Shown piece after piece: positions 3,531 through 38,384 of a stretch of 64,000 bases of DNA. The translations under genes and the position numbers were made by a program. Positions within the stretch are counted from its first letter, which is position 1, and each line of letters begins with the position of its first letter. Where the stretch lies: NCBI RefSeq assembly GCF_963921235.1, contig NC_086119.1, forward strand, positions 48,422,001 through 48,486,000, given 5' to 3'. Source of the DNA: Mobula hypostoma. Lineage: Eukaryota. The notes beneath the pieces are model-generated. The model had not been told where the DNA came from. It searched no databases and worked only from the letters and a program-made list of their open reading frames with translations.

Positions 3531-3924
3531 TAATAAATGAACAATAAATATTGAGATGAAGAGCACAACATAAATCTGGCTTAACCTTACTGTCTTATGA
3601 TGTGAAATTTGTTGTCTTGTAGCAGCAGTACAGAACAAGGACAGAATTATTATAAATCACAAAATGGATAATAGTGCAAAAGTAATGGGGTAGTGTTAAT
3701 GGACCATTCCGAAACCTGATGTCAGAGTGGAAAAAGTAGGATCTGAATTTTTGAGTGTGGGTCTTCAGATTCCTGCACCCACTCCTTGATGGTAGTAACG
3801 AGAAGAGGGCACGTCCCAGGTGGTGAGGCTCCGTACTGATGGATGCTGCCTTCTGGAAGCAGCGTGTCTCAAAGGTTGGGAAGGCTGTGCCCGTGATGAA
3901 GTTGGCTGGGCCTACCACCCTTTG

Positions 3925-4488
3925 TTGTTGTTCGTCCATCGGCATCGTCGATGAAGACCTCGACACCATTATGATGTTGATGGTGTCGAGACTAGCGCAT
4001 GATTTGGATTTAAGTGAGGGAGAGTTGTGCAGTGTCAGCCTCTCTCTCTCTTCCCAATTCCCATCTGGATCCAGTGGCAAGACAGAGTTGAGACGGCTGG
4101 AGATGGGACTAGGTGCAGTGGATGACCAGGACGTCTTCTGTGTCTTGTCCTGCTCTACACGTTCCACAACGCTTGCAGAGACTGCCTTCTTGACCGTTGG
4201 ACCTTCCATTGATCCAGTCCGCTCAGTCCGCCAGAGTCTGCCTTCACGTGCTGGGATAGACTACTCCCTATCTCATCGAGGGTTTGAGACCTGTCGGCTA
4301 CTCTCACCTGGTTTAGTTGGCTTGTCGAAACCGTTGCCCGGGGTATGGCGACTGTCACATGCAAACAGCTACGGGGAGCCACAGGTGAGAGCTGAGTGTC
4401 AGGTGGGGACCAAAGGTGGACTAACCGCCTTGAAAAGGACGCGACATGTTCCCCCACCAGAGGTACTACGTCTCCCTGACACCCCATT
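3925..4488 (-). mobile_element. Full-length non-autonomous RTE-derived short retroelement (~560 bp)
   Basis: 9-bp TSD CACCCTTTG at 3916-3924 and 4489-4497; (CAA)n tail; second copy at 37490-37980; RTE assignment from recalled similarity to RTE-derived SINE-like elements. Confidence 0.8.
4301..4485 (-). ncRNA. HDV-like self-cleaving ribozyme fold at the 5' end of the RTE-derived element
   Basis: P1 GGGGUGU/AUACCCC, P2 CUCUCACCUG/CAGGUGAGAG, P3 GGC/GCC, L3 beginning UCCCCG, GGGCAAC after P1, P4 hairpin, J4/2 CUAA with putative catalytic C at 4316. Confidence 0.72.
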
Positions 4489-4631
4489 CACCCTTTGCAA
4501 CCTTTTACAATCCTATGCATTGGAAACTCCATGCCAGGCTGTGATGTAACCACATCATACCTCAGTAAAAATTTGCAGGAGTCTTTGGTGACATACCAAA
4601 TATAAGATACTTAAAAGTTAAGTTTATTAAA

Positions 4632-16578: not shown

Positions 16579-17591
16579 CAAACACAAGGAAATCTGCAGA
16601 TGCTGGAAATTCAAGCAACACACATAAAAATTGCTGGTGAACGCAGCAGGCCAGGCAGCATCTCTAGGAAGAGGTACAGTTGACATTTCGGGCCAAGACC
16701 CTTCGTCAGGACTAACTGAAAGAAGATCTAATAAGAGATTTGCAAGTTGGGGGGGAGGGGAGATCCAAAATGATAGGAGAAGACAGGAGGGGGAGGGATG
16801 GAGCCAAGAGCTGGACAGTTGATTGGCAAAAGGGATATGAGAGGATCATGAGACAGGAGGCCTAGGGAGAAAGAAAAGGGGGAGGGGGGAAACCCAGAGG
16901 ATGGGGAAGGGGTATAGTGAGAGGGACAGAGGGAGAAAAAGGAGAGAGAGAAAAAGAATGTGTGTATATAAATAAATAACGGCTGAGGTACAAGGGGGAG
17001 GTGGGGCATTAGCGGAAGTTTGAGAAGTCAATGTTAACCATTCCCATTCCCATTCCCATTCTGATATGTCTATCCACGGCCTCCTCTACTGTAAAGATGA
17101 AGCTACACTCAGGTTGGAGGAACAACACCTTATATTCTGTCTGGGTAGCCTCCAACCTGATGGCATGAACATTAACTTCTCAAACTTCCGCTAATGTCCC
17201 ACCTCCCCCTCGTACCCCATCCATTAATTATTTATATACACAAATTCTTTCTCTCTCTTTCCTTTTTCTCTCTCTGTCCCTCTCACCATACCCCTTGCTC
17301 ATCCTCTGGGTTACCCCTCCCCCCCTTTTCTTTCTCTCTGGGCCTCCTGTCCCATGATCCTCTCATATCCCCTTTTGCCAATCACCTGTCCAGCTCTTGG
17401 CTCCATCCCTCCCCCTCCTGTCTTCTCCTATCATTTTGGATCTCCCCCTCCCCCTCCAACTTTCAAATCCCTTACTCACTCTTCCTTCAGTTAGTCCTGA
17501 CGAAGGGTCTCGGCCTGAAACGTCGACTGCACCTCTTCCTACAGATGCTGCTTGGCCTGCTGCGTTCACCAGCAACTTTGATGTGTGTTGC
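16579..17591. mobile_element. Penelope-like insertion made of two inverted 3' segments (16579-~17035 minus, ~17036-17591 plus)
   Basis: Both arms match the 134-1440 element; flanked by a 14-bp TSD with 2 mismatches (TGTAGTGTGTAGCT 16565-16578, TGTAGTGTACAGCT 17592-17605). Confidence 0.9.
17492..17529 (+). ncRNA. Minimal type I hammerhead ribozyme motif, intact core
   Basis: AGUC-CUGACGA-AGG(GUCUCGG)CCU-GAAAC-GUC^GACU: stem I AGUC/GACU, palindromic ACGU stem III, predicted cleavage after C17524. Confidence 0.8.
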
Positions 17592-19261
17592 TGTAGTGTA
17601 CAGCTTTCTGGATATTCATTTTCCATGGCTAGTGGGGCTTATTGCCAACCTCATCTTTCTATTACAGCAGTATGACCTTTATCTGTGACAAAATTAAACT
17701 TCAAGTCAATATTCCTTGCTCAGCTTCTTGTTGCAAATAAGCTAACATAGCATATCAAACATGGTCAAAGATCTAGTTATTCAATCAATAGTAGGGGTAT
17801 TTATGTACTCAGAGAATCAGATGTCACAGCATTAACTTTGGTTGCCTGGAATCTCTGTTCCCTGAAACTTTTTGAATTACCATCTTTGTGAATTATTTTA
17901 TCCCAGTAAAGGTATCTGAAAAACATCCTGCTGCGTTCACCAGCAACCTTTATGTGTGTTACGTGCCGATGATGTCCACATTGGAGATTGCTGGGAATGG
18001 CAAGCAGAATGAAAGAAAAATGGGGTGACAGAGAGAAGAACTTGAATTCATTCCACATCTCTTTATTTCTGTGATAAACAACTTGTTTGTCTACTACTTG
18101 TTGGTACATTCTTTTAGTTTGTAAGAATTGTACCTGTGTTTGGAAATCCCTTGTAGCTTTCAAATCTGTAATTTAGAAATCTTTTATAAATCAGAACTCC
18201 TCTGTGAGTTTTAAATGTATGTCATGATCTACTTGTCTAAATGTAAATGTGTATCATTAAAAATAAAATAAAAAATAAACTCTGTTTAAACTATGTTGGT
18301 AGCTAGAACCATCTCCTCCTTTTGAGAGTGGGATCTACCAGTCAAATTATGGATATTGGCGGCTAGACCTCACCACAGAGACTAGACAGGGAAGTAATCT
18401 AGTCTTTGAAGAGTAGGTTGATACTGTATAACCTCCCTATAGTGAGAGTTTTCTTAGATACCTGTATCAAATAGGGCTTAAAATCCCCTTTTGAGATTAG
18501 GGCATTGCAGACAGGCAACCTAAAACCATCACAATAGGGTCACTCAGTTAAATTGCTTATATAGTGCAATGTATTTACAGGCTGAATGTTTACAGTTTGT
18601 GAAACAAAAATATACTTGCATGAGAATGTGAATTATTTTTCAGACATTATGCTACTATTTCTGGAGATATATATACATTTAAATTCGATAAGGAATATAT
18701 GAACAAATACATTAGCCAACAAACCTTACCTTAATTTACTCTTTTTTGACCAGTGGACTGTCCAAGCACACTATCTTCTTTAAGAGTTTCCAAAGTGCTG
18801 AAAAAATATAAGCATTACTTCTTTTAATTTCATATATTTCAAATGCTGGATCTTTTTAATTATAGGTGGGAAAAAAGTTATGCTAGGAGAAAATTGAATG
18901 ATTGGAGAATTAATCAAGACCCAGATCCACTACATGTGTCAAAAATTTATTTCTGTCACCTTTGGGGAGAAGATCTGTGTGTGTGATATTGTGTGTTACA
19001 GACAACTTCTCCAAAGGATTGAAAAAAACAACTATTATTATTTCTTTTTCCAGTTCATGCAAGCTAGTTACAGACTAATAACATGTCACAAACTACATGA
19101 ATATCCAATCAGGTGTGTATCTTAGGGGATGGTTTAGCCATCAGATAGCTGACATATCTAGGTTGTCCCATGATGACTCACTGCCGCCGAGAGAAAACAA
19201 AGCCCTGACTATTCAGTGGCCTTGTGGATCCAGCCATTATCAGTGTTGATAACCAGAGAGA

Positions 19262-24200: not shown

Positions 24201-24444
24201 TGTTACAGCCCATTTCACTAATGGAAATTTGCCCCGAGAGAATTCTCAAACCAATGTGAATGAATGAATACCTGCTCTGATAACGTGGCTTTACATCATA
24301 GAAAATCACGATATGGACATCCTGTAGGAATACAACCAACCCCAACCACTCACTGTAATGAGGCTAAAGTAAGATGCCACAGAGTGATTGCCCCTTACTT
24401 AACCTTGCTGCCCTTCTTGAATAAACAGTGCTCTATACAATCTA

Positions 24445-24570
24445 CAGGAATTCTGCAGATGCTGGAAATTCAAGCAACATACATCAAAGTTGCTGGTGAA
24501 CGCAGCAGGCCAGGCAGCATCTATAGGAAGAGGCGCAGTCGACGTTTCAGGCCGAGACCCTTCGTCAGGA
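24445..24570 (-). mobile_element. 126-bp solo Penelope terminal module with intact hammerhead core
   Basis: Perfect 14-bp TSD CTCTATACAATCTA at 24431-24444 and 24571-24584; minus strand reads GUC-CUGACGA-AGGGUCUCGGCCU-GAAACGUC-GACUG. Confidence 0.9.
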
Positions 24571-24979
24571 CTCTATACAATCTAGTTGTTTACCAACAAT
24601 GACTGAAGCACACCATGAATTGCATATTGATAAATTCCTTCGAACACTGACTAACCCACTCCCTCTATTACTTCATGTCATACCCTCCATCACCTATGAG
24701 CACACTTCTATCATTTACTTACACATTCTCACGGCTGATATCTAACATGCTTTCTCCATCAGTTAACACCTTTATTCCTTTATCAGTTTATGACACATTT
24801 TGTCTACCACTAACTGGTATTCTCCCTCTATCTCTTACTAACATGTTCCATCCATTAATTACCAACATACCGACTGATCCCAGACTGCAGACTCAGGTCG
24901 TGAGTGGAGTTTCTCTTTAAGAAAAAGGAAGTGTAGAAAGTGTGCTGGGTTGCAAGTAAGACTGAAATGTAGAGGCTTC

Positions 24980-27789: not shown

Positions 27790-29048
27790 AAATGCCAATG
27801 CCATCCCCTTCTCGCAATTCCTCTGTCTCCGCCGCATCTGCTCTCAGGATGAGGCTTTTCATTCCAGGATGAGGGAGATGTCCTCCTTTTTTAAAGAAAG
27901 GGGCTTCCCTTCCTCCACCATCAACTCTGCTCTCAAACGCATCTCCTCCATTTCACGCACATCTGCTCTCACTCCATCCTCCCGCCACCCCACTAGGAAT
28001 AGGGTTCCCCTGGTCGTCACCTTCCACCCCACCAGCCTCCGGGTCCAACATATTATTCTCTGTAACTTCTGCCACCTCCAACTAGATCCCACCACTAAGC
28101 ACATCTTTCCCTGCCCTCCCCTCTGCTTTCTGCAGGGATCGCTCCCTACATGACTCCCTTGTCCATTCGTCCCCTCCATCCCTCCCCACTGATCTCCCTC
28201 CTGGCACTTATCCTTGTAAGCGGAACAAGTGCTACACATACCCTTACACTTCCTCCCTTACCACCATTCAGGGCTCCAGACAGTCCTTCCAGGTGAGGCG
28301 ACACTTCACCTGTGAGTCAGCTGGGGTGATATACTGCGTCTGGTGCTCCCGATGTGGCCTTCTATATATTGACGAGACCCGACGCAGACTGGGAGACCGT
28401 TTCGCTGAACATCTGCACTCTGTCCGCCAGAGAAAGCAGGATCTCCCAGTGGCCACACATTTTAATTCCACATCCCATTCCCATTCTGACATGTCTATCC
28501 ACGGCCTCCTCTACTGTAAGGATGAAGCCACACTTAGGTTGGAGGAACAACACCTTATATTCCGTCTGGGTAGCCTTCAACCTGATGGCATGAACATTGA
28601 CTTCTCTAACTTCCGCTAATGCCCCACCTCCCCCTCGTACCCCATCCGTTATTTATATACACACATTCTTTCTCTCACTCTCCTTTTTCTCCCTCTGTCC
28701 CTCTAACTATACTCCTTGCCCATCCTCTGGGTTTTCCCCCCCTCCCCCTTTTCCTTCTCCCTGGGCCTCCTGTCCCATGATCCTCTCATATCCCCTTTGC
28801 CAATCACCTGTCCAGCTCTTGGCTCCATCCCTCCCCCTCCTGTCTTCTCCTATCATTTTGGATCTCCCCCGCCCCCTCCCACTTTCAAATCTCTTACTAG
28901 CTCTTCCTTCAGTTAGTCCTGACAAAGATTCTCGGCCTGAAACGTCGACTGTACCTCTTCCTAGAGATGCTGCCGGGCCTGCTGCGTTCACCAGCAACTT
29001 TGATGTGTGTTGCTTGAATTTCCAGCATCTGCAGAATTCCTTGTGTTT
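27790..29048 (+). mobile_element. Penelope-like element, 5'-truncated, same family as 134-1440
   Basis: NAIPFSQFLCLRRICS linker, GIY-YIG ORF 28293-28619, terminal module with mutated hammerhead (CUGACAA). Confidence 0.92.
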
Positions 29049-29099
29049 GTGTCATTCTGAACTCTGATCTTGCTCCAGATTTTGTCTCAGCATTTAAGC

Positions 29100-37489: not shown

Positions 37490-37980
37490 GTTAGTCCACC
37501 TTTGGTCCCCACCTGGCACTCAGCTCTCACCTGTGGCTCCCCGTAGCTGTTTGCATGCGACAGCGGCCACACCTCAGGCAACGGCTTCGACAAGCCGGCT
37601 AAACCAGGTGAGGGTAGCCGACGGGTCTCAAACCCTTGGTGAGATAGGGAGTTGTCTATCCCAGCATGTGAAGACAGATTCCGGCGGATTAAACAGACGA
37701 GACTTATGGAAGGTCCAACGGTCAAGAAGGCGGTCTCTGCAAACGTTGTGGAACGTGTAGAGCAGGACAAGACACAGAAGACGTCCTGGTCATCCACTGC
37801 GCCTAGTCCCATTTCCAGCCATCTAGACTCTATCTTGCCACTGGATCAGATGGGAATTGGGAGGAGAGAGTGAGGCTGACGCTGTGTAACTCTCCCTCAC
37901 TTAAATCCAAATCACGCACTAGTCTCGACACCATCATAATGGTGTCGAGGTCCTCATTGACGTCAACGATGGACGAACAA
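37490..37980 (+). mobile_element. 5'-truncated second copy of the ribozyme-headed RTE-derived element, inside a Rex1-like fragment
   Basis: Collinear reverse complement of ~3925-4425; retains P2, P3, P4 and J4/2 but lacks the P1 5' strand. Confidence 0.85.
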
Positions 37981-38384
37981 CCAAATATGTAAGTAGTGCA
38001 AAAATGGAAAAAAAAACTAGTGAGGTAGTGTTCATGGGTTCAATATTCATTCAGGAATTGGATGGCAGAGGAGAAGCTGTTCCTGAATCATTAAGTGTGT
38101 AACTTCATGCTCTGTACCTCCTTCCTTAGGGTAAAAATCAGAGCTAGGCGTGTCCTGGGTGATGGGAGGTCCTTAATGATGGACACCACCTTCTCGAGGC
38201 ATCACTCCTTGAAGATGTCCTGGAGGCTAGTGCCCATGATGGAGCTGATTAAGTTTACAACTCTTTACAATTTCAATCATGTGCAGTAGCACCCCCCGCC
38301 ACCTCCAACCCCAACCCCCATACCAGACAGTCATGTAGCCAGTTAGGATGCTCTCCACAGTAGAACTGTAGAAATTTAACATAA

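Follow-up and report, generated by a model that had tools for sequence, protein, structure and literature searches.

The minus strand of the window (the whole 64-kb stretch of DNA analysed here) carries a decayed copy of a 570-nt non-coding RTE derivative, the intact copies of which probably excise themselves from host transcripts just before the equivalent of position 4494 and would then be reinserted by an RTE protein acting in trans. An element copy lying within a host read-through transcript would fold into a double pseudoknot, assisted by a stem in J1/2 and a long P2 as in the ribozyme drz-Agam-2-1, and the predicted self-cleavage just before the first G would free the element RNA. The RTE protein would then bind the 3′ end of this RNA and reverse-transcribe it into a new target, often with the addition of one untemplated base.

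A high-copy bipartite element and its RTE relatives

The element and its parts, together with a second copy in the window, are located as follows (TSD, target site duplication):

3921..4494, minus strand: whole element, a non-coding bipartite RTE derivative of about 570 nt (family A), delimited by alignments and copy counts
4489..4497, minus strand: 5′ copy of the TSD, 9 nt, overlapping element positions 1-6 via microhomology
3916..3924, minus strand: 3′ copy of the TSD, 9 nt
3990..4261, minus strand: body homologous to the 5′ UTR of RTE-a, 74-75% over 272 nt
3921..3959, minus strand: RTE-type 3′ end that terminates in (CAA)n and matches the RTE-a terminus at about 81%
37490..37981, plus strand: second copy of family A, 5′-truncated, 88.6%, beginning inside J1/2

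Family A has at least 3,036 copies in the 3.48-Gb genome, as judged from exact matches of one 24-mer, and a first look at the genome gave 5,412 candidates. Its copies end in a (CAA)n tail, all full-length copies have unique flanks, and a TSD of 8-22 nt was found for 46 of 68 full-length copies. In 49 aligned copies, a sample biased toward the best matches, the median divergence from the column majority is 3.2%, compared to 6.2% for the window copy. The longest sense ATG frame of the element encodes 110 aa, and there is no frame of the size of a reverse transcriptase (RT). Neither a tRNA gene nor a perfect Pol III A or B box was found in the element, and as there is no Rfam match either, it lacks the tRNA-, 5S- or 7SL-derived head with A and B boxes by which a SINE is defined. 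The designation as a SINE-like family in the first-pass annotation was apt insofar as the element is non-coding, RTE-derived, abundant and devoid of Pol III boxes, but it is better named a bipartite non-autonomous RTE, since its 5′ and 3′ parts are RTE-homologous, it does not encode an RT, and its copies are dispersed, flanked by TSDs and tailed by a microsatellite. At least half of the sampled family words are contained in each of thirteen public runs from seven organisms, one possibly being the source of the assembly; no RNA run was listed among the holders of these words.

As had been proposed, the genome contains a matching autonomous RTE. This lineage, RTE-a, was found through its tail pattern and is about 4.2 kb long, with APE and RT domains in one long frame that is interrupted by copy-specific stops. 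It shares 272 nt of its 5′ UTR (74-75%) and 36-41 nt of its 3′ end (about 81%) with the element, and because the body matches at only 75%, RTE-a is a relative rather than the direct parent. The same body and tail blocks were recognized by eye in WALLSI1A, RTE-3_AMi and RTE-1_PSi in the part of the Kojima supplement that was compared (PMC5786205), and the partner LINE is tentatively assigned to the RTE clade from its APE and RT frame and from the resemblance of these UTR blocks to those of named RTEs. The tails of family A and RTE-a differ by a compensatory change in a small 3′ stem (ATCG/CGAT versus TTCG/CGAA), which is a candidate recognition hairpin for the RT. A second lineage, RTE-b, comprises ORF-bearing copies and a short derivative of its own. 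Furthermore, three sister families, B1, B2 and B3, bear the same kind of hairpin in L3 as family A (869 and 187 matches of two patterns) and share with it the head and part of the body while having different tails; the best pairwise identities are about 86-91% for B1 and 72-81% for B2 and B3. An additional ribozyme-headed sister variant has 290 pattern matches.

Elsewhere in the window, a young repeat family (87-97% identity) is present in several copies (133-1386, 16579-17592, 27797-29052 and 24438-24572). A long inverted repeat at 16971-17233, at the junction of repeat copies, gave a weak match to the MIR408 model (28 bits versus a cut-off of 64) and is probably not a microRNA.

The ribozyme-like head and the position of its 5′ end

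The first 194 bases of the element fit an HDV-type fold with an extra hairpin in L3. In the window copy, the parts of this fold occupy the following positions:

4488..4494, minus strand: 5′ strand of P1 (GGGGUGU in the family, 2 of 7 bases differing here), with the predicted cleavage just 5′ of 4494
4392..4487, minus strand: J1/2, 96 nt; its closing 10-bp stem (4484-4475 with 4403-4394) includes the strand taken for P1 in the first-pass annotation
4381..4391, minus strand: 5′ strand of P2, 11 nt
4378..4380, minus strand: 5′ strand of P3, GGC
4350..4377, minus strand: L3, 28 nt, made up of a 7-nt canonical part and a 21-nt insert
4377, 4376, 4375 and 4372, minus strand: canonical L3 residues, namely U4377, C4376 and C4375 for P1.1, and G4372 as the G25 equivalent
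4370-4350, minus strand: L3 insert, holding a 19-nt hairpin (4369-4351) and missing from the RTE-a and RTE-b ribozymes
4340..4349, minus strand: 3′ strands of P3 (4349-4347) and P1 (4346-4340; ACACCCC in the family, C at 4345 in 47 of 49 copies)
4318..4339, minus strand: P1.1 GG (4339-4338), J1.1/4 and the P4 hairpin (4333-4328 with 4323-4318, closing pair broken here)
4313..4317, minus strand: J4/2 with the putative catalytic C4316, conserved as C in all aligned copies (49/49 and 32/32)
4301..4312, minus strand: 3′ strand of P2, 12 nt, with one bulged C

In the family, P1 has seven Watson-Crick pairs counted from the first base (the first GGGGUGU with ACACCCC), which agrees with the 6-7 bp from the 5′ base, usually a G, of HDV-like ribozymes; the window copy, with only 5 pairs, deviates from this. 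P2 and P3 are connected as in the HDV class, P2 having 11 bp with one bulge and P3 being 98% paired. P1.1 is paired in 92% of cells, the U and CC of L3 are invariant, and the G that completes the equivalents of U20-G25 is found in 31 of 32 rows. P4 is followed by a C-N-R-A type J4/2 with the putative catalytic C. The 28-nt L3 of family A, by contrast, exceeds the usual 7-8 nt, which makes the head a variant rather than a canonical HDV-like member. Most of these parts had been read correctly from the window copy beforehand: P2 (4391-4382 with 4310-4301), P3 (GGC/GCC) and an L3 opening with UCCCCG are in place, as are GGGCAAC directly after the 3′ strand of P1, the P4 hairpin and CUAA with C4316, and the hairpin of about 19 nt in L3 (4369-4351) turned out to be family-wide. 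The GG>AA change at 4318-4317, just before the catalytic C, was also borne out (the family has G in 42 of 49 and 45 of 49 copies). Altogether, the ribozyme of the window copy departs from the column majority at 14 positions, its P1 is shortened and the closing pair of P4 is lost, and it is probably inactive, as the first-pass annotation had suspected. An alternative P3, in which GGC pairs with GCU of the hairpin to leave an 8-nt L3, was discarded; it would separate P3 from P1 by about 20 nt and disagrees with the alignment to the RTE heads.

The copies of family A begin with GGGGTGT-AT-GGGGTGTC, and the G+1 of the family corresponds to the column of window position 4494. In the 49 aligned full-length copies, shared sequence starts at this column, with G in 42 copies, and the preceding column is mixed. 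Genome-wide, there are 914 exact 31-mers that run from the first G. We also mapped the 5′ starts of 38 copies in genome order, namely the complete set of 30 loci from the 24-mer search plus 8 non-duplicate family A loci from the tail-pattern search: 18 start exactly at G+1, 21 within 3 nt of it and none upstream, and the remaining 17 are scattered truncations, 3 of the 38 starts lying at positions 7-9, which adjoin position 10, where the 5′ end had been placed earlier. The TSD ends within 1 nt of G+1 in 27 of 46 copies. The base preceding G+1 is T in 33 of 55 copies and G in 3 of 55, compared to 34% T in the flanks (p = 1e-4). Capped templates are expected to leave an extra G, and no extra G of this kind was seen at the 5′ junctions.

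The first-pass annotation had placed G+1 at 4485, and the pile-up of full-length starts shows that the 5′ end of the family lies 9 nt further upstream, at the equivalent of 4494. Copies thus do extend beyond 4485, but only as far as the better G+1. The 3′ strand of P1 at 4346-4340 was identified correctly, but the register of its 5′ partner was not, and J1/2 has 96 nt rather than about 87 nt once P1 starts at 4494. The apparent distance of 3 nt between G+1 and the TSD arises from a short 5′ truncation with microhomology. Since the first P1 strand of the window copy overlaps the TSD (positions 1-6) and differs at two bases, the second GGGGUGU, which is predicted to form the 5′ strand of the 10-bp stem closing J1/2, looked like the start.

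We aligned 32 hand-picked, natural, near-complete heads (9 of family A, 7 of B1, 3 of B2, 1 of B3, 4 of RTE-a and 8 of RTE-b). As MAFFT misplaced the 5′ strand of P2 in one version of this alignment (A1) and the P3/L3 block in another (A2), pairing in P2 was scored on A2 and that in all other helices on A1. When P1 is placed at the first G, 93% of cells are paired, compared to 35-53% for slid partners, and there are 35 cells with a double change. In the register of the second GGGGUGU no double change is seen and 13 of 32 cells are unpaired at one pair, because the RTE heads lack the second GGGGUGU. The first-G register is favoured by 12 kcal/mol in two well-preserved copies (L010 and L024) and by 6 kcal/mol in the window copy. 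That the second GGGGUGU forms P1, with cleavage at 4485, is therefore very improbable in our view, even though such a P1 can be drawn in 34 of the 38 copies that pass our descriptor (see below) and 21 genomic copies carry foreign bases in both positions directly before the second GGGG; the comparison pattern for the truncation rate of the latter also caught a sister family. These few starts may reflect ordinary truncation or slippage between direct repeats, and they stand against the 914 copies that run exactly 9 nt beyond the second GGGGUGU. Three copies (L030, L037 and L224) show a tandem repeat of the element's first 8-11 bases at the 5′ junction, and an event of this kind could have created the doubled P1 strand of the family.

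Conservation of the fold and the hairpin in L3

To search for the fold, we wrote a descriptor in a strict form with a normal L3 and in a relaxed form with an L3 up to 30 nt longer. The 64-kb window contains no strict match and exactly one relaxed match, which is located at this site and includes C4316. In 40 dinucleotide shuffles of the window, 5 relaxed matches (0.125 per shuffled window) and 1 strict match were obtained in total, and when a 200-nt head was shuffled 5,000 times, 2 of the shuffles passed, neither of them with P1 at the first base. The motif alone is thus only modestly above chance per window, and it is its position and conservation that make it convincing. Of the full-length family A copies, 38 of 68 pass the relaxed descriptor, while the strict one is passed by 9 of 30 loci with a canonical-L3 RTE-type head and by none of 8 RTE-a loci. 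Searches of the window, of four loci and of the canonical RTE-a head against Rfam gave no relevant match, and the negative result for the RTE-a head indicates that this test is insensitive; the HDV-like assignment accordingly rests on our own descriptor and on manual models. Nested minimum free energy folding of the window copy was unremarkable (z = −0.9); nested folding, which cannot represent pseudoknots, assigned P1 a probability of 0.

Compensatory changes, which the first-pass annotation had proposed to look for, were found in P1, P2 and P4. Pair 6 of P1 is GC in 19 and AU in 8 heads of the 32-copy alignment, pair 8 of P2 is CG in 16, GC in 8 and UA in 4 of the 29 distinct rows, and three pairs of P4 swap in a way that separates the hairpin-bearing families from one another, which implies that the constraint persisted after the insertion. 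All 32 rows have the catalytic C, and the base next to it varies. All in all, about five covariation events are seen across the six families, which are related, and the number of pairs with a double change, taken as a measure by itself, did not beat shuffled alignments (66/500 and 467/500). The first pair of the insert co-varies weakly as well, being A with U in 10 of 11 copies and G with U in 9 of 19 (p = 0.023, a value that CpG decay may inflate). An A at position 6 of P1 was observed in 16 of the first 100 full-length copies listed, and the aligned copies with this A have an A-C mismatch. In roughly one in four R2 elements, one or two mismatches are tolerated at the top of the P1 stem (PMC3774820).

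In the RTE-a and RTE-b ribozymes, L3 has 7 nt. Seven RTE-a copies possess a homologous head with a P2 of 12 bp, L3 UCCUCGU (UCCUCAU in two) and mostly J4/2 GCGAA, RTE-b, whose head is homologous too, has L3 UCCAAGY, and the insert-free core pattern has 64 exact matches in the genome. The insert of the hairpin-bearing families (21 nt, or 19 nt in B1) follows the seventh base of L3, so that the spacing of the active-site residues U, CC and G is unchanged, and we infer that it lies outside the active site, after the position equivalent to U26/U27, and is tolerated. L3 is short in both autonomous lineages as well as in the described HDV ribozymes; judged from this comparison, the insert is most likely a derived feature. 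Both L3 variants were present in contigs of four organisms that span the L3 region, these contigs showing neither transcript starts nor strand. No ORF-bearing carrier of the hairpin was found: RTE endonuclease or RT sequences downstream of hairpin heads were absent from 30 loci of the 869-match set, where the few matches were to the short stretch encoded in the UTR and, weakly, to other LINEs in the flanks, and from 30 loci of the 187-match set, and none of 30 family A loci in genome order exceeds the length of the short element. The ribozyme head also occurs in several other short families with different tails, of at least four types (L121-L150, L287-L316 and L197-L248), which suggests that tails were repeatedly exchanged among the ribozyme-headed short families.

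These observations also bear on the idea that the fold is kept for a non-catalytic task of the RNA, such as 5′ protection or binding of the RTE protein at the 5′ junction, with slow or cofactor-dependent cleavage and the insert serving as a binding handle. The R2 protein does bind the ribozyme region (PMC6765202), every hairpin-bearing family seen (A, B1, B2 and B3) has kept the insert, and the stem of the insert co-varies weakly. However, a non-catalytic role has no need of an invariant catalytic C and leaves unexplained why the 5′ end coincides exactly with the HDV cleavage position, and we regard it as improbable.

RTE copies with host leaders and known ribozyme-headed elements

The RTE-a lineage offers a natural control, as many of its copies lack a working ribozyme. 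Among 30 RTE-a 5′ regions, 23 have a GC-rich leader, 2 an OTUD5-like leader, 2 the ribozyme and 3 neither. The GC-rich mosaic leader joins at an AG just downstream of the ribozyme (L159-L188, for example L180:2344-2559, minus strand) and in 5 cases reaches an MCEE-like coding sequence (E = 5e-21 to the human enzyme). The end of the OTUD5-like exon has 48 genomic matches; in 29 of 30 examined the RTE runs directly on after an AG inside P4 of the ribozyme, and the remaining locus is a host exon with a GT donor (L263, G000:C80:31944113, minus strand). Such a junction is the product expected from splicing of a host exon into an intronic RTE, and the OTUD5-type subfamily of RTE-a is likely to be a spliced chimera of host exon and LINE that bypassed the ribozyme and was then amplified. 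No RTE-a or family A copy is located within 80 kb after the OTUD5-like donor, so that the source of the chimera does not lie there. Several OTUD5-type copies also carry part of the GC-rich leader. Of seven ribozyme-bearing RTE-a copies, 5 lack the first three bases of P1, and all 5, on 4 contigs, share an upstream leader of varying length that is a minisatellite and in three cases reaches the end of a C2H2 zinc-finger gene (L189-L193); unique flanks are found in the 2 copies in which P1 positions 2-4 still read GGG. Part of the L189 leader lies in inverted orientation, resembling the outcome of twin priming.

Host-derived 5′ leaders on RTE copies whose ribozyme is broken or spliced out support read-through transcription followed by cleavage, and from these junctions we read RTE-a as being transcribed from the host and trimmed by its ribozyme. 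By extension from RTE-a, family A may work in the same way, so that we infer for it cleavage, read-through transcription and mobilisation in trans by RTE-a or a relative. The host leaders also weigh on another explanation of the precise 5′ end, namely that an internal Pol II promoter sets it at G+1 and that the head is either the relic of a ribozyme or an element with both functions, in which the insert has weakened or abolished cleavage. There is a precedent in trypanosomes, where Pr77, which heads L1Tc and NARTc, acts both as promoter and as ribozyme (PMC4035085), so that a precise 5′ end needs no cleavage, and bipartite LINEs are expected to be transcribed by Pol II (Kojima, PMC5786205). 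In addition, the primary sequence of the head is strongly conserved across families, the subfamily with the P1 mismatch was amplified, and since L3 has 7-8 nt in HDV and CPEB3 (bioRxiv CPEB3 paper), an L3 of 28 nt may impair folding. Nevertheless, the P4 swaps and the fixed catalytic residues point to constraint at the RNA level, G is rare at −1, and RTE-a copies without a working ribozyme bear host leaders rather than starting at +1. We therefore consider an internal promoter unlikely, if somewhat less so than a non-catalytic role, and favour a self-cleaving head.

Agam-2 belongs to an RTE. Its fast ribozyme drz-Agam-2-1 has a structured J1/2 stem and a 12-bp P2 (Webb et al. 2016, PMC4908430). 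The head of family A resembles it in having a 5′-terminal double-pseudoknot core, a large J1/2 closed by a P1.2 stem, a P2 of 11-12 bp and a predicted cleavage site at the first base of P1, and differs from it in the 21-nt hairpin insert in L3, the duplicated 5′ strand of P1, the non-coding carrier and in being a predicted ribozyme. HDV-like ribozymes of RTE elements (Ruminski et al. 2011) are cited in PMC5786205 and PMC6765202, and bipartite non-autonomous RTEs together with predicted RTE ribozymes have been described (PMC5786205, PMC7245038). The bipartite LINEs named by Kojima (2018, PMC5786205), which include RTESINE1/2, WALLSI3, MAR4_MD and RTE-N1/N2_Lch, resemble family A in combining an RTE 5′ UTR with a short 3′ end and in lacking an ORF and a Pol III head. 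Ribozyme-headed R2 SIDEs and trypanosome NARTc/SIDER elements are also known (PMC6765202, PMC4035085, PMC3414825); they belong to other LINE clades, R2 is site-specific and Pr77 is also a promoter, and the available parts of these papers describe no L3 insert for them. Perere-3, of the RTE clade, is headed by twister T-variants (PMC8501958), which represent another ribozyme class, and its P1 is completed by the target site, unlike that of family A, which is wholly encoded by the element.

In the literature searched, we found no report of a hairpin in L3, although figures or supplements of Ruminski 2011 and Webb 2009 may show one, and none of RTE ribozymes with such an insert in vertebrates or in non-autonomous elements, nor of leader capture. 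Ribozyme-headed LINE derivatives thus follow a known scheme, and as far as this literature goes, the hairpin insert in L3 is the new part. Our most far-reaching interpretation, to which we give slightly better than even chances, is that the head is an active HDV-like ribozyme with the L3 hairpin as a fourth peripheral domain, kept through at least four waves of RTE derivatives in several species and missed by standard descriptors, and that the ribozyme-less RTE lineages moved with host exon leaders (OTUD5-like, MCEE-like and zinc-finger), which would be evidence of their reliance on host transcription.

This is important because L3 contributes to the HDV active site, and if a natural insertion at this place is truly under selection, it would widen the fold. 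It would also mean that descriptor searches miss a class of ribozymes and that L3 is a site for engineering next to the core, for which the insert-free sister ribozymes of the same genome provide a matched natural pair. The question raised by Kojima, whether 5′ ribozymes explain why RTE yields bipartite derivatives, is thereby tied to a concrete example, and the RTE lineages that carry host leaders in place of the ribozyme represent a natural knockout.
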